The notes: a model not told the origin generated them from the letters alone. Positions 2,094 to 53,927 are shown, numbered from the stretch's first letter. The stretch: 64,000 nucleotides of DNA from Candidatus Parcubacteria bacterium (GCA_039795895.1 JBDKKW010000001.1:18837-82836); one strand, 5' to 3'. A program made the numbers and translations.

Positions 2094-2118
2094 CAGGGCT
2101 CCCTTCGGGGAGCCCTGA
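2094..2118 (+). terminator. Hairpin CAGGGCTCCCcttcGGGGAGCCCTG after the CI-like gene
   Basis: Perfect 10-bp stem with a cuucgg-type loop, followed by an AT-rich tract containing three AGTAAA repeats (2163-2205). Confidence 0.5.
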
Positions 2119-2216
2119 GCTCATTTTAAGGCACACCAGTTCAAGGAGTTGTAAAGAATTAGTAAAGAAAAAGTAAATTAATTATTAAAAATAAGTAAAC
2201 AATTTATAAAGGATTT

Positions 2217-3752: not shown

Positions 3753-3820
3753 ACCCACGAGGAGCTTTCACCCCTGCCGCTTTTCGAGAGCGGTGATTTC
3801 AACCACTCACCCATTCCTCC
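3731..3820 (-). tRNA. tRNA-Ser (anticodon CGA), class II long variable arm, CCA encoded
   Basis: Reverse complement GGAGGAATGGGTGAGTGGTTGAAATCACCGCTCTCGAAAAGCGG...GGGTTCAAATCCCACTTCCTCCGCCA; anticodon loop CTCGAAA. Confidence 0.8.
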
Positions 3821-3855
3821 AAACATTTCATTTAGGCTAGCAAACCATAGCATTT

Positions 3856-3892
3856 TTTTGCAAAATATACAAAAAATGCTATAGTACCTTTT
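3856..3892 (+). promoter_or_regulatory. Sigma-70-type promoter TTGCAA-N17-TATAGT upstream of tRNA-Glu
   Basis: tttttgcaaaatatacaaaaaatgctatagtacc. Confidence 0.5.
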
Positions 3893-3897
3893 CAGAC

Positions 3898-3969
3898 GGC
3901 CCTATCGTCTAACGGTTAGGACACGGCCTTTTCAAGGCTGTAATCGGGGTTCGATTCCCCGTAGGGTCA
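3898..3969 (+). tRNA. tRNA-Glu (anticodon TTC), no CCA encoded
   Basis: GGCCCTATCGTCTAACGGTTAGGACACGGCCTTTTCAAGGCTGTAATCGGGGTTCGATTCCCCGTAGGGTCA; anticodon loop TTTTCAA. Confidence 0.8.
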
Positions 3970-4005
3970 CAGCTTAGAGCACAGCGATAAAAGCTGTGAC
4001 CCTAA
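3961..4005 (+). terminator. Hairpin GGGTCACAGCTT..AAGCTGTGACCC that includes the tRNA-Glu 3' end
   Basis: 12-bp perfect inverted repeat directly abutting the tRNA. No U-tract, so it could instead be an att-associated structure. Confidence 0.4.
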
Positions 4006-4099
4006 GTAGAGCGGGAGCGCTCTACGTCGGGGAATCGAAGCCTGTTTGAGTATTTTTTCAAGTGTAGTAACACGCAGAAAAAATCCAAACAGGGTACTG

Positions 4100-4216
4100 A
4101 CCGTGTAACGGTCGAGTCCCGTAGGGTTACCTCCGTGACCGAGAATGTATGCAAGGTTCCCTGTAGGAAAATTATAGCTGAACCCATTACCATGTCGTTT
4201 TCCGTAGAGTTATCAT
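4100..4216. repeat. Degenerate direct repeats of the tRNA-Glu 3' end (att-site remnants)
   Basis: cggtcgagtcccgtagggttacc (4108-4130), ggttccctgtagg (4154-4166) and ttccgtagagtta (4199-4211) all resemble tRNA-Glu ggggttcgattccccgtagggtca. Confidence 0.5.
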
Positions 4217-4226
4217 TTTACCCACA

Positions 4227-4793
4227 TTGTTTAAAATAAGAGCAAATTTTGTAGGAAGTTTTAAGGTTGGAGATAACATCAATCACAATCTGAGGGTCTT
4301 AACTTTACTGTATAGTTATTTTGAAAATGTGGATAATAATAAAAAGCGGTTACTTTGTAAACCAATCATATTGATAATCATCTCCATTATTGAAGCGGTA
4401 CTGCATGATTTTCACGGACGAATAAGAGCTTACACGAAAGAAGGGGTAAGTACTTTAGCAGAAGATGTAATTAATTATATAAGAGGTAAACATATTGATG
4501 AGTTAGAAAAATACATCATGAGTGCCAAAAAACACGATTTCTTTGATATGAATGATACAAAGTTCTACGATACATTAGATAGTTTTAGAAAATTGAGAAA
4601 CAGAATCCATATTCAAAATACAAAAAACGATTTTGAATCCGATGAATATGTGGCGTTTAATGAAAAACGTAAGGTTGTTGCAGAAAAGCTCCTCGAAAAA
4701 ACCTTAGTGGTGATGAGTGAAAAGTATTCAAGAAATTTTAATGGATATGTACAAGACTTTGAATTGCCATGGGACAAACACTTCCATGATTAG
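4227..4793 (+). CDS. Hypothetical protein in an AT-rich islet, HEPN-like (R-x6-H motif RKLRNRIH); possible Abi/toxin-type protein
   Basis: 188-aa ORF with TTG start. GC is far below the flanks. The HEPN call rests only on the Rx4-6H motif and size. Confidence 0.4.
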   Translation: MFKIRANFVGSFKVGDNINHNLRVLTLLYSYFENVDNNKKRLLCKPIILIIISIIEAVLHDFHGRIRAYTKEGVSTLAEDVINYIRGKHIDELEKYIMSAKKHDFFDMNDTKFYDTLDSFRKLRNRIHIQNTKNDFESDEYVAFNEKRKVVAEKLLEKTLVVMSEKYSRNFNGYVQDFELPWDKHFHD

Positions 4794-4911
4794 GGTGAAC
4801 TATTGTAATTTTGTATTATTTCGTAGTAATTCTGTGTTTATTGGGGCAGAATAGGTTGGTGTGTGTGGTTAGGGAGGTGAATGTGTTAGAATTAGTAGAA
4901 TAGTAATATTC

Positions 4912-5559
4912 TTGAAGTGTATGAATTTTATAAACGATGAATGGACTATAGAAAAGATCAAGGTAGGATTTGAACGTTTTAAGGCTCAAAATGGTAGACT
5001 TCCGACTGGACCAGAAATTGACCAATTAGATTATCTTCCATCAGCTCGACAAATTCAGAGGAAGTTTGGAGGTCTCGAAAAATTACGTTCAGAGCTTGGT
5101 TATGAATATACCCATTTTGGAAAAGGTAAATATAGAAGTGAAATAGCAAGTCGAATAAATGTTAAAGGTCGCCAGGTAGAAATTTCTCTAGAAAAGATTT
5201 TAAAAGAGAAGTTTCATGAAGTTTTTGTTCATACTGAAAAAGTTTTTGATGATTCAAAGAATAGAGTCGATTTTTATGTGTATTGTCCCGATGGAAATTT
5301 TGGTATTGATGTCTTTTATACAGGGACGATGAGGGATTTACAGAAAAATGTAAATATAAAGATTGATAAATATCAGAATTTTACCCACCGATTATATCTA
5401 GTAGTCGCAAATAATGATTTTGAGCAACAAGAACTTAACGGATATATGGTTTCAAAAAAGAAAGCTTTACCGCAAGATAGTACAATTGTGACACTTGATA
5501 CACTTTTTGAAATTATGAAAAATAAAAGAAGTTATCCCGATCCATTTATTACTAAATAG
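4912..5559 (+). CDS. Nuclease-like protein: N-terminal homing-endonuclease-associated (HNH_repeat-like) domain plus C-terminal restriction-endonuclease-like region
   Basis: WTIEKIKVGFERFKAQNGRLPTGPEIDQLDYLPSARQIQRKFGGLEKLRSELGY matches the W..E...GR.PT..E...LPS...I.RKFGG pattern. The C-terminal half reads VDFYVYCPDGNFGIDVFY. AT-rich. Confidence 0.5.
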   Translation: MKCMNFINDEWTIEKIKVGFERFKAQNGRLPTGPEIDQLDYLPSARQIQRKFGGLEKLRSELGYEYTHFGKGKYRSEIASRINVKGRQVEISLEKILKEKFHEVFVHTEKVFDDSKNRVDFYVYCPDGNFGIDVFYTGTMRDLQKNVNIKIDKYQNFTHRLYLVVANNDFEQQELNGYMVSKKKALPQDSTIVTLDTLFEIMKNKRSYPDPFITK

Positions 5560-5702
5560 TTATAAATATCTCTTCAACTTCACAAAAAAGTTAGATGAAA
5601 GTTCTTGTTAATGAATAGAAAAATACTAGTGACCGAAAGCGTACTCTCGATTCCTTGTAAGGTCACAATTAAAAAACCACCGGATTTCTCCGATGGTTGT
5701 GT

Positions 5703-6683
5703 TCAGTTGATTCTATTTATCTTTTCAAGCGCTATGGCCATCTTTCTAAGCGCTTTGTTTTGAATTTGGCGGATTCGTTCGGCGGTGATGCCGAATTGTT
5801 CACCCACCTCTTCCAGTGTCTTGTCGCTGTCTCCATCAAGTCCAAATCTGATGCCTATCAGAGTTCGTTCTCGTGGAGTGAGGGTTTGCAAGAGTCTTTT
5901 GGCAAGCTTAATGTTTTCTCGCCTCTCGCAAACCTTCCGAGGATTTTCTGCATACTCATCCTCTAGTGTGTCCATCCATGTGGCGGTGTCTCCATCTGTG
6001 CCAAGTGGAGCGTCTAGTTCGATTGGCTTTTGGGCTATCGCAAACAAGTTCCTAATCTTCTCCACCGACTCACCGGTCTCCTCGGCTAGCTCTTCTTCGG
6101 TGATACTACGACCGAGGGATGTCTCGAGCTGTTTGATATATTTTCGGTATCGAAGGAATGTCTCAAGTCTATGCGTGGGAATACGAATTGTTCTCCCTTG
6201 TTCTGAGAGCGCCTCCAATATCTTTTGCCTGATCCACCACCTCGCATAGGTTGAAAGCTTTGCGTCGTATCTCCAATCAAACTTCTCGACAGCTTTACAG
6301 AGACCAATATTACCTTCGTTGATGAGGTCAGGTACAGGTACTCCAAGGCCTTCGTGATCGTAGGCTATAGATGCCACCAAGAGTAAGTTGGAGCACACCA
6401 GTGTGTCGCACGCTTGCTTGTCTCCCTTATCTTTCCGTTTACCGAGCTCGATTTCTTCTTCACGAGTAAGTAAGGGGAATGCGCTGATGTCGCGGAAGTA
6501 TCTCCTGAGCTCGTCAGAAGACCGGAGTCTGTTTCCTGAGAGTTCGACGTGTTCGTCGTCAGGTTCTTCGACAGGTGCTTTCGGTGCATTGTGGTTCATT
6601 ACAACCCTTTCGCTTTGAAGCGCAACAAGTAGTTGCGTGACAGTTCTGGTGATAGATACTACTACGGCCAACGGTGTTGTCAA
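5703..6683 (-). CDS. rpoD: RNA polymerase sigma-70 family factor (RpoD/SigA-like); the true start may be the internal ATG at about 6599
   Basis: Regions 2, 3 and 4 are recognisable: RYFRDISAFPLLTREEEIELGKR.., DLINEGNIGLCKAVEKFDWRYDAKLSTYARWWIRQ, ..LTPRERTLIGIRFGLDGDSDKTLEEVGEQFGITAERIRQIQNKALRKM. Confidence 0.9.
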   Translation of the reverse strand: MTTPLAVVVSITRTVTQLLVALQSERVVMNHNAPKAPVEEPDDEHVELSGNRLRSSDELRRYFRDISAFPLLTREEEIELGKRKDKGDKQACDTLVCSNLLLVASIAYDHEGLGVPVPDLINEGNIGLCKAVEKFDWRYDAKLSTYARWWIRQKILEALSEQGRTIRIPTHRLETFLRYRKYIKQLETSLGRSITEEELAEETGESVEKIRNLFAIAQKPIELDAPLGTDGDTATWMDTLEDEYAENPRKVCERRENIKLAKRLLQTLTPRERTLIGIRFGLDGDSDKTLEEVGEQFGITAERIRQIQNKALRKMAIALEKINRIN

Positions 6684-6770
6684 ATAAAATGAACACCCTT
6701 TTCTTTTTGTGGTTTTGAGTGCTTTGTGTATACTTGTACACAGAGAGTACTGTTCTGTTTTTTAATACCT

Positions 6771-7064
6771 ATGACAACCGCAAAGATTCTTTCCGTGGTC
6801 GCTTTGTATCGTGCTCGTTTTGAAAAAGAGGGGATTCCGAAGATTCGGATGAATCCTGATACGTGTCCACGGAGCAAGGACACTGGAGGCAAACGCGAGA
6901 TGTTGGCGCATGCGCACTATTTACTCGATGGCATTGCTAAATACGCTCAAGATCCCGAGAAAGTGGGGAAGACGGGGCGACATCTTGGCTCAGCGCAGAT
7001 GTTGCTGTGGTGTGCCGGCTGGTATACCCTCACTGAGCTGATGGACCACAACCGTCCCGACTAG
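6771..7064 (+). CDS. Hypothetical small protein (about 97 aa)
   Basis: ORF MTTAKILSVVALYRARFEKEGIPK..., followed by a rho-independent terminator. Confidence 0.4.
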   Translation: MTTAKILSVVALYRARFEKEGIPKIRMNPDTCPRSKDTGGKREMLAHAHYLLDGIAKYAQDPEKVGKTGRHLGSAQMLLWCAGWYTLTELMDHNRPD

Positions 7065-7082
7065 ATCGGGCGGTTTTTTGTT
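7052..7082 (+). terminator. Rho-independent terminator GTCCCGACtagaTCGGGCGGTTTTTTG
   Basis: GC hairpin followed by a T6 run. Confidence 0.6.
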
Positions 7083-7163
7083 AAACGTGGTACTATTTGA
7101 CTTTTTTATATAATTCAGTATCATAGATTTCAGAAAACAGTAAGAAACAGAAAGGATTGTTCT

Positions 7164-7541
7164 ATGGATCAAATGCGTTTGTCGGTGAATAGTCTGACGA
7201 GTCTCTTTGATTTGGTCGGAAAGGTGCAGACTGAGTGGCGGGGTGTACACTTCGAAGATATTGGTATCCGATGTATACCGGCTCCTGCTCGGTATCTTTA
7301 TTTGGTCAGTCCCAATGAAGACACTGGCCGTCCGAAAGCCCCATATCGTCCTACTCGACCGCTTCGGGGTTTCTGGGTGGGCACAGGTATTGCTTTTACC
7401 GGAGCTAATCCTCCCGAAAGTTTGGAGCATCTGCTCGAAGAGGCGCGATTCAGCTTTCCAGGTCGTTCTTTTGACCGCATCGGGGTGGGTGTTCTTGGGC
7501 CTTATATTTCCTTGATTCCACTCGAAGACTGGATACCGTGA
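7164..7541 (+). CDS. Hypothetical protein (125 aa)
   Basis: Good RBS agaaaggattgttctATG. Followed by the bidirectional terminator at 7547-7577. Confidence 0.5.
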   Translation: MDQMRLSVNSLTSLFDLVGKVQTEWRGVHFEDIGIRCIPAPARYLYLVSPNEDTGRPKAPYRPTRPLRGFWVGTGIAFTGANPPESLEHLLEEARFSFPGRSFDRIGVGVLGPYISLIPLEDWIP

Positions 7542-7546
7542 ATGCA

Positions 7547-7577
7547 AAACCGATACTCGTGGAGTATCGGTTTTTTA
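7547..7577. terminator. Bidirectional terminator AAACCGATACTCgtggGAGTATCGGTTTTTT
   Basis: Sits between convergent genes. Confidence 0.65.
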
Positions 7578-7582
7578 ATGCG

Positions 7583-7996
7583 CTATGCGGTATGTTTCTT
7601 TTTTAAATCAGCGAACATCGAGGCGGCGAGGGCTATGATGACAATATTTTTGATCATATATTGGCCTTCAAGTGTCGGAGTGAGAAAGCCTTGCCAAGCG
7701 ATATCTGGAAGGAGAAAAAGAGGCATGATGGTGGTGATCATGTGTGGGATGAGCAGGATCATTGCCACTTTTTCCATCTTCGGAATGATAAATAGGACAC
7801 CAATCAAGACTTCCCAGGCGCCAAGAATGCGGATAAAAGTGTGGAATGAAATGAAGGGTAGGGTTTGCTTCAAGAGTGCGTCTACGAGGGGATTGGCAGG
7901 ACTTAAGTCAAAGAATTTGAGTGCGCCAAACCAGACGAAGACCACAAAGAGAGCGAAGTGGGCGAAGAGGAATGCGATGTATTCTTTTTTCTTCAT
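7583..7996 (-). CDS. DoxX-like integral membrane protein
   Basis: 137 aa with four hydrophobic helices; its composition resembles the DoxX/YkgB family. Confidence 0.5.
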   Translation of the reverse strand: MKKKEYIAFLFAHFALFVVFVWFGALKFFDLSPANPLVDALLKQTLPFISFHTFIRILGAWEVLIGVLFIIPKMEKVAMILLIPHMITTIMPLFLLPDIAWQGFLTPTLEGQYMIKNIVIIALAASMFADLKKKHTA

Positions 7997-15789: not shown

Positions 15790-16392
15790 TTAATTATTTT
15801 CGGTGCTCATAAATTTCCCCGGAAATTTCTCGATAGTTGAAAATGGGTACAGTCGGACAAGTGGTCTACCGATAATTTCTTTTTCAGGGAGCGGACCCCA
15901 GCTTCGTGAGTCGAAGCTTGCACTGCGGTTGTCTCCCATTACAAAATATTCAGAGGGGCCGAGGGTTTTAGTGAGAGTGTTTGACCACGGTACTTTTACG
16001 TACGACTCGTCGAGCACAAAGCCTTTCGGATGTTCAGTATTGATGATAGTGACTTTTGTGCCAGAAATGCTGATGGTCTCGCCAGGGAGGCCAATGATGC
16101 GCTTAATATAAAATTTACTTTCGTCGAGTGGTGGACGGAAGATGATGGTTTCGCCACGGGCTGGTTTTTGAAAATGATAGGTGAGCTCGTCGACGATCAA
16201 ATATTGTCCGTCGGCAAAGGTCGGGTGCATTGATTCACCAGAGACGATAAATGGCTGAGCGACGTAGAGGCGGATAGGGACGACAATGACAAGGACGATG
16301 AGTGCAAAGCGGAGGAGTTCTTTCCACTCGGCCTTTGGGGTGAGGGTATTTACTGGGGTAATTGGCTGGTTTGGGGTAGGATTTTCGAGCAT
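15790..16392 (-). CDS. lepB: Signal peptidase I
   Basis: VSGESMHPTF (catalytic Ser box), GDNRSASFDSRSWG box, and an N-terminal TM helix. Confidence 0.85.
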   Translation of the reverse strand: MLENPTPNQPITPVNTLTPKAEWKELLRFALIVLVIVVPIRLYVAQPFIVSGESMHPTFADGQYLIVDELTYHFQKPARGETIIFRPPLDESKFYIKRIIGLPGETISISGTKVTIINTEHPKGFVLDESYVKVPWSNTLTKTLGPSEYFVMGDNRSASFDSRSWGPLPEKEIIGRPLVRLYPFSTIEKFPGKFMSTENN

Positions 16393-19955: not shown

Positions 19956-21191
19956 TTACTTCTTATCTCCTGTGAACGCCAGTGTCATCTTCTGCTCCTT
20001 CGGATCAAACAAAGTGATTTTAAATGGATACACCTTACCGAGCTCGAGCTTCTTGCGAAGCATATCTTCACTACCAAACTCTGATACATGCACAAGACCT
20101 GCTACACCTTCTTCGATTGAAGCGAGTGCACCATGCTTGTTGAATTTGATAATCACACCAGAGACAGTCTGCTCTTTCTTGTATTTCTTAGCAGCTTCTT
20201 TCCATGGATTTTCCTTGAGTGCCTTGATTGAAAGCGATACTTTGCCATCCTTTACTTCAATCACTTTCACGCGCACTTTGTCGCCAATCTTGTAGAGTGT
20301 TTTTGGATTCTCAACGAGTGCCCAATCGATTTCAGAAATGTGCACCAAGCCTTCAAGACCCTCTTCGACTTTCACGAAGATACCAAAGTCGACAAGGCCG
20401 GTCACTTCGCCAGTTAATTCATCGCCAACCGCATATTTGACGGTCATCTTCTCTTTCTCTTTTTCTACCGGACTCTTTTCAGAGAAGATAAGTTTACCTT
20501 CCTTTGGATCTGAGCCGATGATTGAGACGGTGAGGCGAGTGCCTACCAATTTTCGCAACTCTTCAAGAATGCGATCCTTGTCGCCATCCTGTACGCGAGG
20601 GTAGTGATCAGCTTTGAGCTGAGACGCTGGCAAGAAGCCAACAATCCCTTGCCACTCCATAATCAAACCACCCTTGTTTGCTTCCTTTACGGTAAGTTCA
20701 ACGAGAGTCTTGTTTTTGATAATGTCTTCTGCCTCACTCCAGATGAGTGCCTGTCGAGCTTCCTTGAGTGACAACTCGATGTAGCCTTCAGGGTGTTCAG
20801 TATCAACCACTTTTGCAGCGATGGTGTCGCCGATGTTGATCTTTTTAATGATGTCGCGGGCATTGATGTATTCACGACCGTAAATAATACCCGTGCCGAT
20901 AGGGGCAAGGTCAACATACACGCCAGATTTATCAATCGCAATGACCGGACCTTCTACCAAGTCACCAATCGCTGGTGGATTTTTACTGTCTGCCAAAAGC
21001 TGATCCATGACGGTGAGTTTTTTTGGACTCACTTCCTCAGAAGCTTCGACAGCTTTTACCTTTGAAGCTTTTGCTTTCGCTGGAGCTTCTTTTTTTGCTG
21101 GGGTCTCGGTGGTTGCGGTCTTGGTTGCAACTTCCGCTACATCTGCTTTTGCTTCGTCTTTCTTCTTACGTGAAAAAATACCTAATACCAT
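19956..21191 (-). CDS. rpsA: 30S ribosomal protein S1 with a Lys/Ala-rich N-terminus
   Basis: Multiple S1 domains (..GDLVEGPVIAIDKSGVYVDL.., ..GTRLTVSIIGSD.. and others). The long N-terminal extension in the ORF track was trimmed to MVLGIFSRKKK. Confidence 0.9.
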   Translation of the reverse strand: MVLGIFSRKKKDEAKADVAEVATKTATTETPAKKEAPAKAKASKVKAVEASEEVSPKKLTVMDQLLADSKNPPAIGDLVEGPVIAIDKSGVYVDLAPIGTGIIYGREYINARDIIKKINIGDTIAAKVVDTEHPEGYIELSLKEARQALIWSEAEDIIKNKTLVELTVKEANKGGLIMEWQGIVGFLPASQLKADHYPRVQDGDKDRILEELRKLVGTRLTVSIIGSDPKEGKLIFSEKSPVEKEKEKMTVKYAVGDELTGEVTGLVDFGIFVKVEEGLEGLVHISEIDWALVENPKTLYKIGDKVRVKVIEVKDGKVSLSIKALKENPWKEAAKKYKKEQTVSGVIIKFNKHGALASIEEGVAGLVHVSEFGSEDMLRKKLELGKVYPFKITLFDPKEQKMTLAFTGDKK

Positions 21192-27059: not shown

Positions 27060-27129
27060 ATACAGTTTTCCGCCACTCTCCCCAGTGTGGCTTTTTGTTT
27101 GGGTGTGGCCAGTGGTATACTTACGGTAT

Positions 27130-27658
27130 GTTCTCCGATCCGCAGGCGATAATTGACCAACTCGAACTAGCTCCCGAATCTATCGTGGCTGATTTTGGTT
27201 CGGGCTCGGGATTTTATTCACTCGCTGCTGGACGAGTCCTGTCAGCTGGTGGAGGAAAAGTCTATGCTATTGATGTACAAAAAGAGTTACTTGAGCGACT
27301 CAAAGGATTGGCTTCAAACCAAGGTATTCACAACATAGAAGTTATTTGGGGTGATATTGAGGCGCAAAAAGGTAGTAAACTGAAAGACGGGTTGGTGGAT
27401 TGGGTGATTATCGCGAATTTACTTTTTCAGGTTCCGGAGAAATTGGCGGTGTTGAACGAGGCGAAGCGTGTACTCAAGCCACGCGGAAGAGTCTTGGTGG
27501 TAGATTGGTCTGAGTCTTTTGGTGGTACTGGTCCGGCACAGGCTGATGTGGTAACTGAGAGTGCGGTGAAGACGCTTGGGGTGACCGCAGGACTTACCTT
27601 TGAAAAAAAGATTTCCGCCGGTGAACACCATTTCGGGGTTATTTTTAGAAAAATATAA
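27130..27658 (+). CDS. Class I SAM-dependent methyltransferase
   Basis: Motif I VADFGSGSGFYS. Start trimmed to MFSDPQ. Confidence 0.75.
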
Positions 27659-27672: not shown

Positions 27673-28959
27673 ATGTCACGCTTTCAAATCATCTTACTTA
27701 CGCTCTGTGTCGTCTTTATTGTCGCTGGGGTGACCGTCTTTTCACTAACCAAAGATGCAACCAAATCAGCGCGAGGTACGACCGTGCTATGGGGAACTAT
27801 TCCTGACACTCAAATGCAAGTGATACTAAGCCAAGCGAGGGTGACGGACGGGTTGCTTGATGTGACCTATGTTCAGAAAAAGCCGGAGACATTTGATCAG
27901 GAATTCATTGAGGCATTGGCATCAGGCAAGGGTCCGGATGGAATTATTCTTTCCCAAGATTCCATTGTAAAATACGCTGACAAAATTATTCCTATCCCGT
28001 TTACCACGCTACCTGAACGTGATTTTAAAGATACGTTTGTGACTGAGGGTGATCTCTTTTTGAGTGACACAGGGGTGCTCGGTGTGCCATTTACTGTGGA
28101 TCCGCTAGTCCTTTATTGGAATCGGGATGTATTTGCCAATGCAGGTCTCGCTACTCCACCAAAGCTCTGGCAAGACTTTTTGACAATTACCCCAAAGCTC
28201 ACGGTGCGCAAAGGGGTGGGTGATGCAGTAATTACCAAGACTGCGGTGGCACTCGGTGAATATCGAAATATTGAAAACGCTAAGGCGATTTTGTCTGCAC
28301 TACTTCTTCAGGCGGGGACGCCGATTGTGTCGATGAAAAATGGTAGACCTTCGAGTGCCCTAGGTTTTCGTTCGGAACAAGGGTTTTCTCCAGCCGAATC
28401 AGTACTAAGGTTTTACACGCAGTTTGCTGATCCGCAAAAAGCGATGTATGCATGGAATCGTTCGTTTACTTCGGCCCAGCAAAAGTTTTTGTCGGGAGAT
28501 TTGGCGACCTATGTTGGTTTTGCAAGTGAACTCGCCACGCTTCGCGTAAAGAATCCAAATCTCAATTTCGATGTAACACTCTTGCCTCAGACATCAAACG
28601 ATAGTCTCAAGACTACGTTTGGTCAAATGTATGCGCTTGCGCTTGTTCGAGGCTCAGCCAACCCCAATGGGACGATCGCAAATTTTCTAAGTCTTGCTTC
28701 GGCTTCGGTCGGCTCGGTAGTGAGTGAGACATTGCATCTTCCACCTGTTCGTCGAGACTTACTTTCAGTGCAACCAACCGATCCATACAAAGCGGTATTT
28801 AATAATTCAGCGCTGGTGGCAAAAGGGTGGCTTGATCCGAGTCGATCGACAAGTGATCAGATTTTTAAAGACCTCGTTGAATCTGTATCTTCGGGTAGAC
28901 TTAGTTTGCCTGAGGCTATTTCGGAGGCTAACAACCAGCTGGATGCTGTGTTAAAATAA
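27673..28959 (+). CDS. Extracellular solute-binding protein (ABC-type, family 1-like) with an N-terminal membrane anchor
   Basis: 428 aa with an N-terminal TM helix and overall SBP-like architecture. Confidence 0.55.
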   Translation: MSRFQIILLTLCVVFIVAGVTVFSLTKDATKSARGTTVLWGTIPDTQMQVILSQARVTDGLLDVTYVQKKPETFDQEFIEALASGKGPDGIILSQDSIVKYADKIIPIPFTTLPERDFKDTFVTEGDLFLSDTGVLGVPFTVDPLVLYWNRDVFANAGLATPPKLWQDFLTITPKLTVRKGVGDAVITKTAVALGEYRNIENAKAILSALLLQAGTPIVSMKNGRPSSALGFRSEQGFSPAESVLRFYTQFADPQKAMYAWNRSFTSAQQKFLSGDLATYVGFASELATLRVKNPNLNFDVTLLPQTSNDSLKTTFGQMYALALVRGSANPNGTIANFLSLASASVGSVVSETLHLPPVRRDLLSVQPTDPYKAVFNNSALVAKGWLDPSRSTSDQIFKDLVESVSSGRLSLPEAISEANNQLDAVLK

Positions 28960-29414
28960 TGGGTATGATTTTTCCTGTTCTCACAAGTAGTGTGTTTAAA
29001 AGTATTTCGCGAGTGCTTTCTGGTGGGGCGCTGTTTGTGATGTTGGTGTTGTCGATGGTAGGGAGTGGTATATCTTTTGTATCTGCTCAAAACGACCCTT
29101 CTCAGGCAGGATTTCAAGTTGTTCCGTGTGACGGTGTCACCGTCAAATGTGATTACAACCAATTCATCATTGGTATCCAGCGTATCATCAAGGCATGTAT
29201 TCTTTTTGCAATACCACTTTCGGCTGGTGTGTTTGGGTGGTTTGGGATCAAGATGATGACTGCAGGAGGAGATGTAAAGGCACGCGAAGAAGCAAAAAAA
29301 GCGATGTTTATGGTCCTGAAAGGGATGCTTTTGATGCTTTCTGCATGGTATGTGGTAGATCTCGCGCTCGGCGGTCTGCTTTCAGCCGATTTTAAAAGTG
29401 GTTTACAACACTAA
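28959..29414 (+). CDS. TrbC/VirB2-like small membrane protein (pilin-like), paralog 1 of 5
   Basis: Signal/TM segment plus two C-terminal TM helices separated by a charged loop (..GDVKAREEAKKA..). Confidence 0.55.
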   Translation: MGMIFPVLTSSVFKSISRVLSGGALFVMLVLSMVGSGISFVSAQNDPSQAGFQVVPCDGVTVKCDYNQFIIGIQRIIKACILFAIPLSAGVFGWFGIKMMTAGGDVKAREEAKKAMFMVLKGMLLMLSAWYVVDLALGGLLSADFKSGLQH

Positions 29415-29415
29415 T

Positions 29416-29781
29416 ATGAAAAAAATACGCACCTTCGGAATTATGTTGCTTGCGAGTACAGTCTTATTGGGACCAATGTTTGTGCTAGCAGATCAGGTGG
29501 CGAGTGGATTGCCAAACCCGCTTGGCTCCCAAAACGGTACCATCTACGATTTCGTTAAAGCAGTTCTGGGTATCTTCCTTAAAATCGGTATCTTTGTCTC
29601 GGCCTGTTCCTTCATCTACTCGGGCTTCCTTTTCGTGAAGGCTCAGGGTGATGCAAAAGGGAGGGAGGAGGCTTCAAATGCTTTTTTGAATACCGTCATC
29701 GGTACAGCGTTGCTTCTGGGTTCTTGGGGATTGTCGCAGATTATTAAGACGACAATTAGCAGTATTACTGGTATAAATTAA
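29416..29781 (+). CDS. TrbC/VirB2-like small membrane protein, paralog 2
   Basis: MKKIRTFGIMLLASTVLLGPMFVLA signal; ..FLFVKAQGDAKGREEASNAFLNTVIGTALLLGSWGLSQII. Confidence 0.55.
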   Translation: MKKIRTFGIMLLASTVLLGPMFVLADQVASGLPNPLGSQNGTIYDFVKAVLGIFLKIGIFVSACSFIYSGFLFVKAQGDAKGREEASNAFLNTVIGTALLLGSWGLSQIIKTTISSITGIN

Positions 29782-29786
29782 ATAGT

Positions 29787-30182
29787 ATGAATATGGTTAT
29801 GTTTAAAAAGAATCTAAGATCGGTTGTTGTTGGGATGGTGTTGAGTGTTAACGCCTTTTTGGTGATGACTACGTCGGTCAGTGCACAATCTGTCCCTGCA
29901 AGCAAGATTAAGGATTTTCCTGACCTGATGCATTTTGCGATGAGTACTATCAATGACATTATTGTGTTCATTGTTGCCCTCGGGGTAGTGTGGGTAGTGT
30001 ATCTCGCTTTCTTGTTGATTAAAGTCGAAGGAGAGAAGAAAGATGAGGCTCGAAATTCAATTATTTACGGACTAGTGGGTATCTTTGTGATGATTTCGAT
30101 ATGGGGTTTGGTCAATATCTTTGTAAATACGTTTCAGTTAGATAACGATACCAAGCCTGTGCCACCGACACTCTCGAATTAA
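29787..30182 (+). CDS. TrbC/VirB2-like small membrane protein, paralog 3
   Basis: ..AFLLIKVEGEKKDEARNSIIYGLVGIFVMISIWGLVNIFVNTF. Confidence 0.55.
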   Translation: MNMVMFKKNLRSVVVGMVLSVNAFLVMTTSVSAQSVPASKIKDFPDLMHFAMSTINDIIVFIVALGVVWVVYLAFLLIKVEGEKKDEARNSIIYGLVGIFVMISIWGLVNIFVNTFQLDNDTKPVPPTLSN

Positions 30183-30286
30183 GTAACATGTCGGCTGTTC
30201 TGGGTATCCACAGGGTGGTGTTTGATGGCAACCTCTCGTGATATACTTACGGGTATAGTAATTATCATTAGTAGTAATTAATTTAT

Positions 30287-30649
30287 ATGAAGAAATTTGC
30301 AATTGCGCTTTCAGTATTGGTTTTTCCAGCGTTAGCGTTGGCCCAGTACTCTATTAGTAGTTCTGATGATTTGTATATGACAGCTCTCAATGTAATCAAT
30401 CGTGTGGTAACACTCATTATTGCATTGGCGGTTGTGTACACTGTCTATGGTGCATTTCGATACGGCTTCGGGGGCGAAGAAGAGAAGTCAAAGTGGAAGG
30501 ATACCATCTTGTACGGTATCATTGCTATCTTTGTGATGGTGTCTATCTGGGGCTTGGTAAATATTTTGACTGGTACTTTCCGTCTCAATTCAACCACTGT
30601 TCCAACTACGGCTCCAGATGTAACCACCTTCCGGAGGGGTACAATTTAA
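30287..30649 (+). CDS. TrbC/VirB2-like small membrane protein, paralog 4
   Basis: ..GAFRYGFGGEEEKSKWKDTILYGIIAIFVMVSIWGLVNILTGTF; shares the IWGLVNI motif with paralog 3. Confidence 0.55.
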   Translation: MKKFAIALSVLVFPALALAQYSISSSDDLYMTALNVINRVVTLIIALAVVYTVYGAFRYGFGGEEEKSKWKDTILYGIIAIFVMVSIWGLVNILTGTFRLNSTTVPTTAPDVTTFRRGTI

Positions 30650-30665
30650 CTAGCACATTTGTTTT

Positions 30666-30947
30666 GTGAACACTGTCTACGCTGAAATCAACGCAAACTC
30701 GGCTGATCCATTGATCGCTAAGGTTTTGACACTCGTGGTCAATCCACTCGTTGGTTTCTTGTTTGCGCTGGCGGTACTCTACTTTCTCTGGGGTGTCTTC
30801 AAGTTTATTCAACACTCTGAAGACAGTACTGCAAGAGAGGAAGGACAGCAACATATGCTCTGGGGGGTCATCGGGATTGTGATTATGGTGTCGGCATACG
30901 GCTTGATTCACTTCATTCAAAATTCGTTGGCAGTGATCGGGGCGTAG
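30666..30947 (+). CDS. TrbC/VirB2-like small membrane protein, paralog 5
   Basis: ..FIQHSEDSTAREEGQQHMLWGVIGIVIMVSAYGLIHFI. Confidence 0.5.
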   Translation: MNTVYAEINANSADPLIAKVLTLVVNPLVGFLFALAVLYFLWGVFKFIQHSEDSTAREEGQQHMLWGVIGIVIMVSAYGLIHFIQNSLAVIGA

Positions 30948-31143
30948 GAATAGAAACGAGATTCAAGAATCTAGATGTAAGTGAAGAAAAAGCGACGAAG
31001 GCGAAAGCCTTCGTCGCTTTTTCATCCTATCCTTAATTCTTAAATCTTGATTCTGGGTTTCATTCTACCCAAAAGAAAACCCCGTAGAGTGCCAGTGTGG
31101 CGCTCTACGGGGGCGATTTGTGCGAGATACTCCGACTTTCGGA

Positions 31144-31632
31144 TTATAGCTCGCGAATGAACAAGGCGACCGATTCTCGACCGGGCGCTTTGAAGGAAAC
31201 ACTCCATTTTGCACCACAGTCCACATGACTGTCGGGGGTAAGGAGTACAGGCTTGTTGGTATTTCCTTCAGGATAGGCTATGACAGTTCCGCTACGAATG
31301 ACTTCGTATCGTGCTCCGGGAGCAAGCTCTATCTGAAGATCTACCAATCGAGTGACTTCACCTGGGTAGGCAGTAAGAGAAATTTCGCGTTTGGGGCGAA
31401 CTTCGCTCGGCCTGCTTGCGGAGGTATGGGAAACTTTCTTTGAGTTGTCGTAACAACCCTTGAAACCCCACACCAAGATACCGACTATCACCAGAAACTT
31501 CCAGTTGTTGCCGAACCAGGTTTTGACGCTGGTGCCAGCACCTGCAGGAAGCGAGGGGAGTGTCGGTGTTCCGAATGCAGCGATGAGGGTGGTGATAACC
31601 ACCACTCCCACTACGATCCATACCCAGATCAT
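31144..31632 (-). CDS. Membrane protein, possibly NfeD-like partner of the upstream SPFH protein
   Basis: Two N-terminal TM helices plus a soluble C-terminal region. It overlaps the upstream gene by 4 nt (ATGA). Confidence 0.4.
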   Translation of the reverse strand: MIWVWIVVGVVVITTLIAAFGTPTLPSLPAGAGTSVKTWFGNNWKFLVIVGILVWGFKGCYDNSKKVSHTSASRPSEVRPKREISLTAYPGEVTRLVDLQIELAPGARYEVIRSGTVIAYPEGNTNKPVLLTPDSHVDCGAKWSVSFKAPGRESVALFIREL

Positions 31633-32699
31633 GGTGTACCTCCTTTTTTTGTGTCATCCTCTACGAGGAGCTGGGCTCCACCACCAAGGACGAGGGTGCC
31701 TTGATGCTTTTGAATCGCATCAGCAAGCCCGCGTCTTGCTTGGGGGTCGTGTTTTTGCAAACGCTCGTAGCGAGCCGCTTCAACTTCGACGTCAGCCATA
31801 CCTTTCGTTCTTCCTGCGGTAGCCAATCTTTCGATGGCTTTTGCATCGGCTTCAGTCTTTGTTGCGAGGACTTTAGCAGCTAGTTCGGCTGCCTTAATGT
31901 TTGCCTCACCCTCAAGCTGAGCTCGTGCAGTCTTTTCCGCTGCGTCAGCGAGACCACCAGCCACGTCGTAGCCTAAGAATTCGGCGGAGTTGAATTTCAC
32001 TCCACACATTTCCAAGAGACTAAGACTTACTGCACTGGTCAGCGTCGTATTGAGACCCATGACTCGGGCACTCAATTGGTTTACGTGTGCTGGAGTATTG
32101 GCACGGAAGTCAACCGATGTCTGCGAACGCAGATAATCGGTCGCCACTGCCGTAATCTTTGCAGTGGCGTTGGCGAGCCAATCGGGAGTCTTGAAGAGCA
32201 TTGTCTCCACATTGACCGCTTCGATCGTGACCAAGAGTCTCAGATTGATTTTTGCCCCATCTGCAGTCTCGGCATCAGTGATTTCGATTGCATACGGGAA
32301 TCGGAAGTAAACGCTCATCGCGTCACCATCTCTTGCTTCGATTGTGTGCTCCTTTGCATCTTTCTTTTTTGTCCACTTGTTCCAGTGGAATGGATAGGTG
32401 TAGATACTACGGAAGGGCGGAACACCGATCCAATAGATTCCATACCAACCATTGGGACCCGCTACGCCGGGGGTGTGTTTGATCACACCTGTGCTTGGAT
32501 CGATCGAGTAGTCCCTAATACAGGATATAAACTCGTGTTGGGTTTTTCCACTCATGATGGTCAGTATCTGACCTTCAGGGAGCATGACCCAACCAATACC
32601 TTTTTTTGCTAGGATATAGATCCATAAGGGGATCATCGCTAGCAAAACGAGAACCGCGATTCCGAATTGAATCGGATGTTGTGCGATAATTTCGTTCAT
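31629..32699 (-). CDS. SPFH/band-7 (stomatin/flotillin/HflK-like) family membrane protein
   Basis: N-terminal TM helix, a central SPFH-like region, and an Ala/Glu/Lys-rich coiled C-terminus (AEKTARAQLEGEANIKAAELAAKVLATKTEADAKAIERL). Confidence 0.55.
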   Translation of the reverse strand: MNEIIAQHPIQFGIAVLVLLAMIPLWIYILAKKGIGWVMLPEGQILTIMSGKTQHEFISCIRDYSIDPSTGVIKHTPGVAGPNGWYGIYWIGVPPFRSIYTYPFHWNKWTKKKDAKEHTIEARDGDAMSVYFRFPYAIEITDAETADGAKINLRLLVTIEAVNVETMLFKTPDWLANATAKITAVATDYLRSQTSVDFRANTPAHVNQLSARVMGLNTTLTSAVSLSLLEMCGVKFNSAEFLGYDVAGGLADAAEKTARAQLEGEANIKAAELAAKVLATKTEADAKAIERLATAGRTKGMADVEVEAARYERLQKHDPQARRGLADAIQKHQGTLVLGGGAQLLVEDDTKKGGTP

Positions 32700-33066
32700 T
32701 TTTTTCCTTATTTTGTTGTCAGGGCCGGTGGGGAAACAGATCCCTTAGGCGTACTAACGTTCTAGGGTTAAGTATAGCATATTTGAATAATAAAGTCAAA
32801 TGAATCAGGGCGAGGGAGAAATGGCTTAATGGAGGCGTATTTTAGATAATTTGTCGCGGTTCAGTTTACTTATTTTAGGGGAGAGTCTCGATCGTTGCTC
32901 GGTCAGTACCCGCGATTGGATTATTGTGGATAGAGGCTCGGTCACGCATAATCTTTTGCTAAAGATTTGCGCGACCCCGACTCGCGCCGTCGCGCTCCGT
33001 CTTTCGAGTCTCCATCCACAAGACATACAAAAAGACTGGAATTCAATCCAGTCTTTTTGTATGTTG

Positions 33067-33147
33067 TGGGCGAGGGGAGACTCGAACTCCCACACCTTAC
33101 GGTACTAGTTCCTAAGACTAGTGCGGCTACCATTACGCCACTCGCCC
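33067..33147 (-). tRNA. tRNA-Leu (anticodon TAG), long variable arm, no CCA
   Basis: Reverse complement GGGCGAGTGGCGTAATGGTAGCCGCACTAGTCTTAGGAACTAG...GGGAGTTCGAGTCTCCCCTCGCCCA. Confidence 0.75.
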
Positions 33148-33345
33148 AGTGAAGTTCCTTCGTATCCAGTAGGAAATTCGAAGCTTATCGTAAATTTGAT
33201 CAACATGCTTTGTGGTCACGGATATTTTACTCGTCGTCACTCGTAAAATTCCTCGACCTCGACTCGGTTGTTTTGTCTGCTGACAAAACATACCTCCGTC
33301 TCGCACCAGTAAACAAAAAAGTTACGCAGGCAACTTTTTTGATTC

Positions 33346-33421
33346 TGGTGCGCCCAGTAGGAATCGAACCTACGACCTTCTCCTTAAGAGGGAGCAGCTC
33401 TACCAACTGAGCTATGGGCGC
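33346..33421 (-). tRNA. tRNA-Lys (anticodon CTT), CCA encoded
   Basis: Reverse complement GCGCCCATAGCTCAGTTGGTAGAGCTGCTCCCTCTTAAGGAGAAGGTCGTAGGTTCGATTCCTACTGGGCGCACCA. Confidence 0.8.
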
Positions 33422-33651
33422 ATATATGTTCTCTATCGAATAAATCCGAAAGAGTGTTGAAAAATATAGCAAAATTTTAATGATTTAGCAATATGGGGTA
33501 CTTGAGGTGGGATATCTTTCTCTATGAGAACAGTATCCCAATTGGATATTTTATTTCGCAAAGCTCTTAAAATATCTCAATCGGGCTTCGATTTCCACCT
33601 CGAAAGCGTAACACGCTTTCTTCGAGCACAAAGCTCACTTCGTTCGTTTTG

Positions 33652-33737
33652 TGCTCGAGGTGGGAATCGAACCCACATGTCTTTTAAGGGACGGGGGATT
33701 TTAAGTCCCCTGCGGCTACCAATTACGCCACTCGAGC
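33652..33737 (-). tRNA. tRNA-Leu (anticodon TAA), long variable arm
   Basis: Reverse complement GCTCGAGTGGCGTAATTGGTAGCCGCAGGGGACTTAAAATCCCC...GGGTTCGATTCCCACCTCGAGCA. Confidence 0.75.
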
Positions 33738-33766
33738 ATGTTGCGCGAAAGCTGAGTGCTTTCTCG

Positions 33767-33841
33767 TGGAGGCCACGGCGAGAATCGAACTCGCGCATAG
33801 AGATTTTGCAGATCTCCGAATTACCACTTTTCTACGTGGCC
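33767..33841 (-). tRNA. tRNA-Cys (anticodon GCA), CCA encoded
   Basis: Reverse complement GGCCACGTAGAAAAGTGGTAATTCGGAGATCTGCAAAATCTCTATGCGCGAGTTCGATTCTCGCCGTGGCCTCCA. Confidence 0.8.
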
Positions 33842-51938: not shown

Positions 51939-53927
51939 GTGCGCTTCGGTATGTCAGAACACTTAAAGAAAGGCAGAAAAAGTATGTTTGCGTTCATTGT
52001 GAAGCTGGTGTTGGGTGTCGTGCTCTTCTCGTTTGCACGGTATTTGTTCGGTCGCGCCAAAGAGCCTACGGGCCGGCGCGATGAAGGTGCCATCACTCCT
52101 TTGCTGGCAGGTTTGCTGGGCAAGGTTGGTGTGTCGTTGTCGGTTGCCATGATTTTCTGGGCCATCATCGGTACCAGTATGATCTGGGTGCCGTCCGGGA
52201 AGATTGCCACGTTTAAGCGGATCTACTTCGCTTCGCCTCTGCCTACGGGCAAGATCGTGGCGTTGGACAATCAGCTCGGACCGCAGGCTCGCATCATGAC
52301 CGCTGGGTTTCACTTTGAACCATTCGTCACACTCCTCAATGAAGTCGAGGATGTGCCGGTGTTCTCTGTGCCCAATGGCCAGTGTGCGATCATCTCGGCG
52401 CGTGATGGTGTGATCTTGCCGGGTAATCCGGCATTTCCGCCTCCGTGGTCAGATGAGACCAAGCTGAAGATGATCAACGACGCCGAATACTTCCTCACGG
52501 AAGGAAAAGGTGTGCGTGGTCCTCAAACGACGGTCCTGACACCTGGTTCGTATAACATCAATCCGTTTTTGTGGGAGGCCCCGAAACTGGTCGCCGCACA
52601 ACGGGTTGAGCAAGGCACGGTCGCTGTCGTGAAGTCGTCGGTGCGAGCTGCGGTGGACTTCGGTCCGTTCCGTCGCCCGCTCTCTGTCGATGGTAAACTC
52701 AAGGTGCTCACGTTGGAGCGACTCCAGAAGGATTCGGCCAATGTGCTCTTGGTGCCTGTCGGCGAGATCGGTGTGTGGGAGGAACCGTTGCCAAACGGTC
52801 TCTACTACATCAACACCGACGCATACAAGGTCACGATGGTGCCGACGGTCGCGCAGGTCCACGAATACAAAGGTGGATACAAAAAGCGCTCGGTTGAAAT
52901 CAGCCTCAGTGACAAAGGCACGATTACCGAACGGGTCAGTGAAGTGGATGTGCAACCGGCGAATGCAAAGTCGGACACCGCCATCTTTACGAAGCCCGAA
53001 GGGTGGGATGTGCCTCAGGAAGTGCGGGTGATTGTGCAGGTTAGTCCGGAGATGGCGCCATTTGTGGTGGCATCGCTCGGATTGACCGAAGCAAATGCGA
53101 CGCACGTCATTGAAGACCGTGTGGTGACTCCGATCGTTCGTTCGGTTGTGCGCGATGTGCTTGGTGGGGCTCAAATCCTCTTCAAACAAATGCGCGCGAT
53201 CCTCGACGACAAGGGTATGCCGGTCATCGGTGCCGATGGCAATCCGAAAACCGAGATGCATCAGGAGTTCCGTGCGGTGAAAGTGATGGACTTGCTCGAG
53301 CAACGCGCTTCTCTCGAAGAGGCGATTGATTCTCGGGTGAGGCCTGAAGCGCTGAAAGAGGGTGTGACGGTCAACGAAGTCCGTCTGTCCGAATCGGCGA
53401 TTCCTGCTGAGCTTCTGATTGCGCGCAAGCGTGAACAGCTCGCTCAACAGCTCACCAAGGCATGGACTGCCGAACAGACTGCGCAAGCCCAGCGTCAGCT
53501 CACTGAAAATGCTCGGTCACAAGCCGAACAGCAAGGTGAGTTGGTGAAGGCTGATATCGCGGCACAGGCGGCAAAGCAACGCGCCAATGCTCGGACGATT
53601 GAGGCCGATGGCGAGAAAGCCTATCTGCTCGCGGTCGCTGAAGGACAGAAGGCCCAGTCTCTGGTCCTTGGTCCCGAAACGACTGCCAAGTTGCAGATGT
53701 TCCAGCAGCTTCTCAAAGCCGGCATGGAGCTGGTGGAGAAGAATCCGGAAATGATCAAGGCTGGTCTCGAAAGCGCGCACAAGTTTGTGCCGACTGTGAT
53801 GGTGAACTCGTCTGGTCAGGGTAGCGGAAATATGGAGGGGGCTGCGGCCGTCTTCGGACATCTGCTAACTACTGGTGGAGCTCAACCGTTTAAGCCGGTG
53901 TCCACTCAGGCGGTCACTACGAAGTAA
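51939..53927 (+). CDS. Flotillin-like SPFH-family protein (long form, about 650 aa); start may be the internal ATG at about 51984
   Basis: N-terminal TM helices, an SPFH-like core, and a long Ala/Gln/Glu-rich coiled region (..AQAQRQLTENARSQAEQQGELVKADIAAQAAKQRANARTIEADGEKAYLLAVAEGQKAQ..). Confidence 0.65.
   Translation: MRFGMSEHLKKGRKSMFAFIVKLVLGVVLFSFARYLFGRAKEPTGRRDEGAITPLLAGLLGKVGVSLSVAMIFWAIIGTSMIWVPSGKIATFKRIYFASPLPTGKIVALDNQLGPQARIMTAGFHFEPFVTLLNEVEDVPVFSVPNGQCAIISARDGVILPGNPAFPPPWSDETKLKMINDAEYFLTEGKGVRGPQTTVLTPGSYNINPFLWEAPKLVAAQRVEQGTVAVVKSSVRAAVDFGPFRRPLSVDGKLKVLTLERLQKDSANVLLVPVGEIGVWEEPLPNGLYYINTDAYKVTMVPTVAQVHEYKGGYKKRSVEISLSDKGTITERVSEVDVQPANAKSDTAIFTKPEGWDVPQEVRVIVQVSPEMAPFVVASLGLTEANATHVIEDRVVTPIVRSVVRDVLGGAQILFKQMRAILDDKGMPVIGADGNPKTEMHQEFRAVKVMDLLEQRASLEEAIDSRVRPEALKEGVTVNEVRLSESAIPAELLIARKREQLAQQLTKAWTAEQTAQAQRQLTENARSQAEQQGELVKADIAAQAAKQRANARTIEADGEKAYLLAVAEGQKAQSLVLGPETTAKLQMFQQLLKAGMELVEKNPEMIKAGLESAHKFVPTVMVNSSGQGSGNMEGAAAVFGHLLTTGGAQPFKPVSTQAVTTK

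Follow-up and report, generated by a model that had tools for sequence, protein, structure and literature searches.

Tandem arrays of genes for VirB2-like pilins have been described in Patescibacteria, where the function of their type IV secretion system (T4SS) is regarded as completely unknown (PMC11665869). Candidatus Southlakia epibionticum ML1 carries an essential six-gene array inside its T4SS locus, SEML1_0006-0019 (PMC10633639; PMC12857230), and in this organism, the one cultivated Patescibacterium tested, the array is essential for epibiotic growth (PMC10633639). It is the only species amenable to genetics, and its T4SS is likewise essential. A survey detected VirB4 in 2,417 of 3,035 Patescibacteria assemblies; 1,948 assemblies had VirB2-like pilins, and in 1,135 of these the pilins lay near virB4. 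Its 441 arrays hold 2-11 pilins with a mean identity of about 25% and a maximum of 54%, they are most abundant in Microgenomatia and Saccharimonadia, and a supplementary figure maps arrays near virB4 (PMC12102498). Here we describe an array of five such genes at 28959-30947 (+) in a 64,000-nucleotide stretch of a Candidatus Parcubacteria genome (GCA_039795895.1, JBDKKW010000001.1:18837-82836; hereafter the window, with positions counted from its first nucleotide). The array directly follows the gene of a sugar-type solute-binding protein (SBP), and its products are probably subunits of a surface structure that a T4SS encoded elsewhere assembles.

Since divergent VirB2-like arrays of Patescibacteria have been published (Wang 2023; Quinonero-Coronel 2025), arrays of this kind are already known. 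Like those, the window array consists of tandem, divergent PF18895 paralogs on the chromosome of a monoderm host, with no relaxase context, and its five genes of 22-40% pairwise identity fall within the array definition of the survey (2-11 tandem pilins of low mutual identity in Patescibacteria). Unlike the Southlakia and surveyed arrays, it does not lie in or near a virB4 locus, is coupled to an SBP gene with a methyltransferase gene upstream, keeps the order 1-2-x-4-5, ends in a leaderless gene, has a predicted internal promoter and comes from Paceibacteria. The SBP coupling, the lack of virB4 linkage, the constant gene order, the last subunit without a leader and the predicted promoter with its operator appear to go beyond the published work; we found no mention of an SBP in the survey (PMC12102498).

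VirB2 of Agrobacterium, TrbC of RP4, TraM of pKM101 and TraA of F share with the window proteins a signal peptide ending in A-x-A/Q (here and below the slash marks the cleavage site), a two-helix hairpin and a short loop. They differ in that those systems have one major pilin, whereas the window has five paralogs, in a monoderm host, that score under the VirB2/TrbC Pfam threshold, have no virB operon around them and include one leaderless member. Pilins of the VirB2/TrbC class polymerise into an extracellular, lipid-bound helical pilus, and their maturation involves leader cleavage, cyclisation or acetylation. The Mycoplasma proteins Mbov_0395 and MMCAP2_0565 (family NF045849) are likewise two-helix proteins, of 80 residues, of a monoderm T4SS; unlike the window genes, each is a single copy inside an integrative and conjugative element (ICE), and the window proteins score under the 40-bit cutoff of that family.

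Results

Family assignment of the five genes

The initial annotation had read the array as five tandem, same-strand paralogs of TrbC/VirB2 pilins, and both the open reading frames (ORFs) and the pilin identity are borne out. The best Pfam family for all five is PF18895 (T4SS_pilin), whose gathering score of 26.6 bits is passed by gene 4 (41.0 bits) and gene 5 (35.5 bits). All five also share NF045849, a family of pilin-like conjugal transfer proteins of Mycoplasma ICEs, with E-values from 5e-10 to 2e-6 (4.5e-8 for gene 2), all under the cutoff. Gene 4 is 100% identical to NCBI MEN9613752.1, named 'Type secretion system pilin', from a Candidatus Parcubacteria metagenome-assembled genome (MAG), on a 135,633-bp contig that also carries MEN9613748 onward (MEN9613748-MEN9613752, locus tags RLZZ347_55-59); genes 1-3 are named hypothetical proteins at NCBI, and the exact gene 5 sequence was not found in the collection searched. 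The PF18895-type family is large, a 46-member profile finding 26,597 50%-identity clusters at E <= 1e-3.

To VirB2/TrbC itself the connection is made by profile-profile comparison, for which profiles specific to each array position, from about 46-50 genomes, were aligned by hhalign with seven annotated VirB2/TrbC proteins from plasmids. The position-1 profile aligned over 65 columns, the whole mature pilin, with a probability of 93.5% and an E-value of 2.2e-7, placing gene 1 residues 68-139 against VirB2 55-120. The probability was 48% for the second position (E 1.9e-4), 26.5% for the last and 6% for the penultimate, and all of these position-specific alignments share one register. In addition, orthologs from positions 1 and 2 match PF04956 over its full length (21.4-26.0 bits, E 1e-5 to 3e-4). 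The check that the initial annotation had named, PF04956 and profile comparison, thus gave a divided answer: profile-profile similarity was found for position 1, and the Pfam gathering score was not reached. Homology to VirB2/TrbC is direct for gene 1 and extends to genes 2-5 by transitivity, because they share the PF18895 family. By these profile matches the five genes belong to PF18895 and are remotely homologous to VirB2/TrbC, and pilin 1 is the most VirB2-like of the five.

A hidden Markov model (HMM) of the orthologous arrays, made from 25 sequences with the window's own five included, was run on all six frames of the 64-kb window and, with E <= 10 as the limit, still matched the five ORFs alone. 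The strong scores of the five are partly by construction, because their own sequences are inside the model, and the informative result is that there is no other match.

Predicted topology

Pilin 1 (28959-29414, +, 151 amino acids) is predicted to consist of a signal peptide, an extracellular extension with C57 and C64, and a two-helix hairpin. Pilin 2 (29416-29781, +) has a signal peptide and the hairpin; we take its start as the ATG at 29416, giving 121 amino acids as in the Joint Genome Institute (JGI) gene call, and the alternative GTG start (ORF 29398-29781, 127 amino acids) yields a poorer signal peptide than the ATG form (MKKIR...). Pilin 3 (29787-30182, +, 131 amino acids) carries a Pro/Thr-rich C-terminal tail after its signal peptide and hairpin, and pilin 4 (30287-30649, +, 120 amino acids) a Thr/Pro-rich tail after the same elements; as the initial annotation had noted for two of the paralogs, these two share the motif SIWGLVNI. 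Pilin 5 (30666-30947, +, 93 amino acids) starts with GTG and is a leaderless two-helix hairpin.

Hydropathy gives genes 1-4 three hydrophobic segments, the first signal-peptide-like and the other two flanking a charged loop of 10-15 residues, with AxA-type cleavage sites that read, in gene order, VSA/Q, VLA/D, VSA/Q and ALA/Q. Gene 5 has two hydrophobic segments and a cleavage-site remnant, VYA/E; a leader could not fit, as the frame is interrupted by a TAG at 30651-30653. The picture of an N-terminal signal or membrane segment followed by two helices in every paralog therefore holds for genes 1-4 but not for gene 5, which is a bare hairpin. The two helices and charged loop that characterise PF18895 are seen by hydropathy in all five, gene 5 being without signal peptide, and an AlphaFold2 (AF2) model of pilin 4 also shows the hairpin, with helices at 2-18, 26-61 and 64-97 and a mean predicted local distance difference test score (pLDDT) of 76. 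Fold searches with the AF2 hairpin monomer returned non-specific matches. A signal peptidase I (S26) is encoded within the window at 15790-16392.

Coupling of the array to a solute-binding protein

The gene directly 5' of the array (27673-28959, +) had been named in the initial annotation as a membrane-anchored solute-binding protein. It encodes a MalE-type protein of the SBP_bac_1 family (PF01547, E 3e-18; PF13416, E 1e-15) with an N-terminal hydrophobic segment. Its closest relatives in the PDB are sugar-binding proteins and MalE (best E 1.6e-18), and a sugar is the likely ligand class. Its stop codon overlaps the ATG of pilin 1 (TAATG).

In all 56 related loci with at least 3 kb of downstream sequence an array of 4-7 pilin ORFs comes immediately after the SBP (8 loci have 4 genes, 20 have 5, 19 have 6 and 9 have 7), and the SBP stop usually lies -4 to +20 nucleotides from the start of the first pilin. 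A scan with the SBP alignment of one genome per species confirmed at least 594 relatives, the closest 71% identical, the MAG of the window not being itself a GTDB species representative; the best 80 of them all belong to Paceibacteria-type MAGs, among them Taylor-, Kaiser-, Zambryski-, Adler-, Wolfe- and Nomurabacteria. The cassette occurs in at least about 590 species-representative genomes.

In two species the SBP and pilin 1 are a single chain (L049, 9992-11674, 560 amino acids; L032, 3510-5216, 568 amino acids). Both fusions join the SBP to the Cys-containing extension and the hairpin of pilin 1, without the pilin signal peptide and with three hydrophobic segments, and a separate pilin-1 gene is missing from both arrays. 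With 66% identity between the two proteins and 69% between their DNA sequences, the fusion has been kept through speciation and is not an assembly error. Its predicted topology is consistent: the SBP domain is extracellular, and the hairpin is oriented as in the mature pilin. The N-terminal hydrophobic segment of the SBP is conserved like the globular part (F4 0.99, G19 0.98, F23 0.95); it may be an anchor, or a signal peptide cleaved at VFS/L or VFA/T. Since the two genes are translationally coupled everywhere and fused in two species, a carbohydrate-binding module is probably carried by the structure or docked to it.

Two further types of fusion involve the hairpins. Locus L027 (9747-16259) encodes, inside the pilin array, a secreted protein of 2170 amino acids that combines He_PIG, Big_9, cadherin, PKD and fn3 domains and ends in a pilin-2-like hairpin (residues 2087-2168); as judged from its domains, this adhesin is a second case of an extracellular module on a pilin N-terminus. 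There are also single polypeptides with several hairpins behind one signal peptide: P0231 (606 amino acids, 7 hairpins), P0130 (552 amino acids, 6) and P0090 (336 amino acids, 3). The linkers are 15-25 amino acids long, and the sequences look like genuine fusions, not stop-codon read-through. Such chains imply that different hairpins stand side by side in the assembled state.

Relation to a type IV secretion system

We consider it probable that the five genes form a VirB2-like array whose products are assembled into a surface structure by a T4SS encoded elsewhere in the genome, with pilins 4 and 5 as major subunits, pilins 1-3 as adaptors, and pilin 1 tying in the SBP. Several results weigh against this. 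The families VirB4, VirB6, VirB3 and VirD4 were not found among the larger ORFs of the window, in agreement with the initial annotation, which had reported no T4SS component there; VirB4, VirB6 or VirD4 were not found in the 2 kb past its right end, nor was any of the four families found among large ORFs within 10 kb of the cassette in 80 related genomes. The T4SS linkage is therefore indirect. VirB4 is present in 5 of the 5 cassette-bearing relatives that could be matched to Table S1 of PMC12102498, a count that is barely informative because about 80% of Patescibacteria assemblies have VirB4; the MAG of the window is absent from the survey's supplement under both its accession and its locus-tag prefix. 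The family evidence has its own soft points. Genes 1-3 score 26.4, 25.2 and 23.9 bits, 0.2-2.7 bits under the PF18895 threshold, and their same-position orthologs pass it with 27.2-33.5 bits. The PF04956 gathering score of 27.9 bits is reached nowhere in the window or among the orthologs, the best window match being that of gene 5 (15.6 bits, E 0.019). A gene-4-centred family alignment (A2) gave a non-significant 2.9% with VirB2/TrbC in hhalign, and a sequence profile search of PDB chains produced a single entry, TraM of pKM101, with an E-value of 0.29 and a shifted register. Finally, single chains of several hairpins are awkward as filament subunits, and we know of no pilus seen on any Paceibacterium.

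In another explanation, the hairpins work without a T4SS as a hetero-oligomeric membrane pore or docking platform and form, with the SBP, a non-canonical uptake or sensing complex in which they replace the permease of an ATP-binding cassette (ABC) transporter. The SBP is always encoded with the hairpins, and a recurrent ABC ATPase was not found near the cassette: ORFs with both Walker A and ABC signature motifs number none in the window and 3, all isolated cases, in 85 loci covering 1.26 Mb (permeases were not searched directly). It would be expected that virB4 is missing among the large ORFs up to 10 kb from the cassette in the 80 related genomes, the SBP-hairpin fusions retain the N-terminal segment and have three membrane segments, the chains of 3-7 hairpins resemble polytopic membrane proteins, and the N-terminal segment of the SBP is conserved in the manner of an interaction surface. 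However, the proteins to which homology was found are pilins extracted from the membrane, the cassette holds no energising component, the adhesin-hairpin fusion fits surface display better, and VirB4 occurs in all five relatives checked. In Southlakia, moreover, the same family stands inside a T4SS locus (PMC10633639). On balance we regard a T4SS-independent complex as unlikely, and retain assembly by a T4SS encoded elsewhere as the preferred reading.

Age and specialisation of the paralogs

The initial annotation had suggested that such an expanded set of divergent paralogs could serve antigenic or functional variation of a surface filament. The comparison with other genomes does not sustain this. 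Between the window and its relative GCA_964364845.1 (L004), pilins 1-5 in the same position are 63, 67, 64, 73 and 77% identical and the SBP 72%, whereas identity across positions is 22-40%; the paralogs are thus old and fixed in position, and their orthologs are conserved like the SBP. Across 51 arrays from about 50 species genes follow each other as 1-2-[one to four 3/4/5-like genes]-4-5, with 1 to 4 copies, depending on the genome, at the middle position (pilin 3), and the last gene has just two hydrophobic segments in 43 of the 51. The initial annotation had proposed a dN/dS analysis (nonsynonymous over synonymous substitution rates) among the paralogs. Between the window and its closest relative synonymous sites are saturated (proportion of synonymous differences, pS, 0.63-0.82), because of which only dN and rough upper bounds are usable: dN is 0.17-0.33 for the pilins, near the 0.20 of the SBP, and dN/dS is at most 0.16 where computable.

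Several divergent tandem virB2 copies are also found in Bartonella and Anaplasma phagocytophilum, where they are read as antigenic or host-range variants (cited in PMC12102498), and the same idea has been put forward for Patescibacteria arrays (PMC12102498). That the window genes are diversifying, interchangeable major pilins of this sort would fit their 22-40% identity and the total of 4 to 7 genes that results from the variable middle position. We nevertheless hold it to be improbable. Here the copies at positions 1, 2, 4 and 5 are orthologous across about 50 species and appear to be under purifying selection; their architectures differ (Cys-loop extension, Pro/Thr tails, no leader) and these differences are conserved; there are no repeats or recombination cassettes; and the fused multi-hairpin proteins imply co-assembly. 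Positional orthology, conservation and poly-hairpin chains together favour a hetero-oligomer composed of major and minor subunits over a set of antigenic variants that could replace one another. As far as these comparisons go, the five pilins are ancient, non-redundant subunits under purifying selection in a fixed order.

The suggestion that the genes are a novel family of small membrane proteins, such as holins, toxins or bacteriocin/immunity proteins unrelated to secretion, draws on their small size, two transmembrane helices and weak, non-significant Pfam matches to assorted membrane families, but it is effectively refuted and most implausible, as no such Pfam or NCBIfam family scored, the adjacent genes include none for endolysin, lysis, immunity or phage functions, Pfam curates the family as one of pilins, its profile aligns with VirB2, and the core-genome synteny is conserved in hundreds of species.

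A predicted internal promoter

Pilins 3 and 4 are separated by 104 nucleotides (30183-30286, +), in which the comparison of spacers across species predicts an internal promoter. In the arrays the spacer before the penultimate pilin has a median of 99.5 nucleotides, against 9-13 elsewhere, and its consensus reads tTATCCACAg - N5 - TTGt - about 17 nt - TGnTAtAAT. The core ATCC[AC]CA occurs in 31 of 47 spacers, compared with 1.5% expected by chance, and stands almost always 35-38 nucleotides upstream of the -10 element (TAtAAT). The window spacer has the DnaA-box-like motif GTATCCACA at 30204-30212, a weak -35 region at about 30219-30227 and an extended -10 TGATATACT at 30239-30247. In E. coli and B. 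subtilis the canonical DnaA-box consensus is TTATCCACA.

Window-wide, no other copy of the motif has both a TTG and a -10 spaced as in the relatives. The one other box that precedes promoter-like hexamers, at 1282-1290 (-), matches TTATCCACA exactly and stands before TTGACC...TAATAT upstream of a helix-turn-helix (HTH) gene, at a spacing longer than in the relatives. The idea that DnaA-box promoters are a genome-wide feature was rejected, as the other boxes in the window lack the -35/-10 spacing of the relatives. A generic promoter and terminator scan gave counts not over shuffled expectation, and the internal promoter emerges only from the cross-species spacers.

Because it has the best family match and its own predicted promoter, pilin 4 is the candidate major subunit. 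In Paceibacteria, virB4 lies near dnaA and dnaN (PMC12102498), and a pilin promoter controlled by DnaA would fit that placement. Our literature search found no paper joining DnaA boxes with Patescibacteria.

The 5' untranslated regions (5'UTRs) of gene-4-type pilins have further common stretches. In loci L006, L030, L055, L056, L063, L072, L078, L081, L086 and L089, many share TGGTCG(T/C) downstream of the -10 and a stretch ATTATTAG...TAAT directly before the start codon. The window 5'UTR has the second motif only (ATTATCATTAGTAGTAAT, about 30261-30278). The shared stretch may be a conserved leader or a ribosome-binding feature.

Neighbouring genes and genomic context

The first gene of the operon is probably that of a class I S-adenosylmethionine (SAM)-dependent methyltransferase (27125-27658, +; Pfam Methyltransf_31/11/25). 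The operon ends in an intrinsic terminator at 30992-31022 (+), read from the sequence and recovered in a shorter version by the terminator scan: an 11-bp G+C-rich stem with a GAAA loop and a run of five T, GCGACGAAGGC-GAAA-GCCTTCGTCGC-TTTTT. Because an A-run stands upstream of the stem, it may be active in both directions.

The window is chromosomal, with genes for sigma-70, FtsZ, FtsA, signal peptidase I, S1, GyrA, IF-2 and ClpB, as well as alanine racemase, MiaA, ParB, TopA, DprA, SerRS and Dus, and nine tRNAs. The order around the array is gyrA - (small gene) - methyltransferase - SBP_bac_1 - five pilins, followed by opposite-strand genes of 160-200 and 350-370 amino acids. All five relatives that we inspected, down to 37% identity for gene 4, keep the order gyrA-methyltransferase-SBP-array; one of them, L010, is without the 350-370-amino-acid gene. 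GyrA is upstream in 57 of 59 loci, and the methyltransferase is directly upstream of the SBP in 5 of 5 inspected relatives and in at least 46 of 74 loci. Downstream of the window array stand an SPFH-like gene, rbfA and infB.

In the window the opposite-strand pair (31144-32699, -) consists of a 162-amino-acid membrane protein without family match that overlaps a 356-amino-acid SPFH/Band_7-like protein. Transcription of the pair runs toward the pilin operon, with which it has the terminator region in common. The 350-370-amino-acid gene is SPFH/Band_7-like in the window and in some relatives; among 45 loci with enough downstream sequence, an SPFH homolog is found in 11 and a homolog of the 162-amino-acid protein in none. 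A tRNA cluster (Leu-TAG, Lys-CTT, Leu-TAA and Cys-GCA; 33066-33841, -) lies between the SPFH-like gene and rbfA/infB. In two other loci, L010 has an extra pilin gene (19960-20372) about 10 kb downstream of its array, beyond clpB, and L020 has just after its array (6278-7924) a 548-amino-acid protein, perhaps VirB1-like, in which a Walker A motif is joined by a lysozyme-like SLT_3 domain (PF18896, 26.4 bits with a gathering score of 27).

Two regions further from the array were also noted. The ORF at 51939-53927 (+), of 662 amino acids and without Pfam match, lies in the window's only G+C-rich stretch (56% versus about 46%); inspection of the sequence suggests an N-terminal membrane segment and an Ala/Gln/Glu-rich, coiled-coil-like C-terminal part, flotillin-like in outline. 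An rRNA or VirB4 was considered for this stretch at 52-54 kb and rejected: Rfam gave no rRNA, and the ORF had no Pfam match. At the left end, the region 1009-5600 may be an integrated element. In it lie an HTH gene of Cro/CI type (1009-1215, -), a LexA-like repressor of the HTH-peptidase S24 type (1373-2089) and, at 2217-3752, a large serine recombinase that abuts tRNA-Ser (3731-3820) and tRNA-Glu (3898-3970); the stretch after the recombinase is low in GC (36% at 4001-6000) and holds two ORFs without family match.

Discussion

The most likely account of the locus runs as follows. Genes 1-4 would be made with a Sec signal peptide that signal peptidase I cleaves, and gene 5 would insert directly as a hairpin. 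Once mature, each would be a two-helix hairpin whose ends both face outward, while its short charged loop lies in the cytoplasm, and, by analogy with VirB2, TraA and TrbC, the hairpins would form a pool in the membrane. From this pool a VirB4-type T4SS encoded elsewhere could extract them to build a surface filament or conduit, again as in the known systems. Genes 4 and 5, with their own predicted promoter behind a DnaA-box-like operator to which DnaA might bind, are the likely major subunits, and genes 1-3 would be minor or adaptor subunits. Pilin 1 would be physically coupled to the SBP, so that the structure carries or docks a carbohydrate-binding module, for recognition of a host surface or for substrate capture. 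In this account the family, the predicted topology, positional orthology, synteny, the coupling and fusion to the SBP and the promoter motif come from computation, whereas export, cleavage, T4SS assembly, the major and minor roles, display of the SBP and binding of DnaA are inferred.

An association of sugar-binding proteins with pilin-like parts has a precedent in the archaeal bindosome, in which Sulfolobus sugar-binding proteins with pilin-type signal peptides are assembled by the Bas system. The likeness is one of analogy: in both cases sugar-binding proteins are genetically and physically tied to parts of a pilin-like assembly. The bindosome belongs to the type IV pilin-like class, with no homology to the present genes, whereas the SBP described here stands apart from a T4SS-type hairpin or is fused to one. 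Speculatively, and with little confidence, we can imagine the methyltransferase-SBP-pilin cassette as a previously unrecognised surface organelle of Paceibacteria, a counterpart of the bindosome in which the SBP is carried on or docked to a hetero-oligomeric VirB2-like assembly through pilin 1, where it would serve in recognising or scavenging host carbohydrates, with expression of the major subunits tied to DnaA by the box beside their promoter.

Patescibacteria account for much of bacterial diversity and spend their lives attached to other cells, and how they take up material from the host is an open question. Paceibacteria keep a separate, core-genome pilin cassette that is tied to a sugar-type SBP rather than to a secretion ATPase. 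The SBP, which the initial annotation had named as a neighbour only, is the most informative part of the locus, and the locus as a whole gives testable hypotheses about the target that is bound, the major subunit, the adaptor subunit and the regulation of the module.

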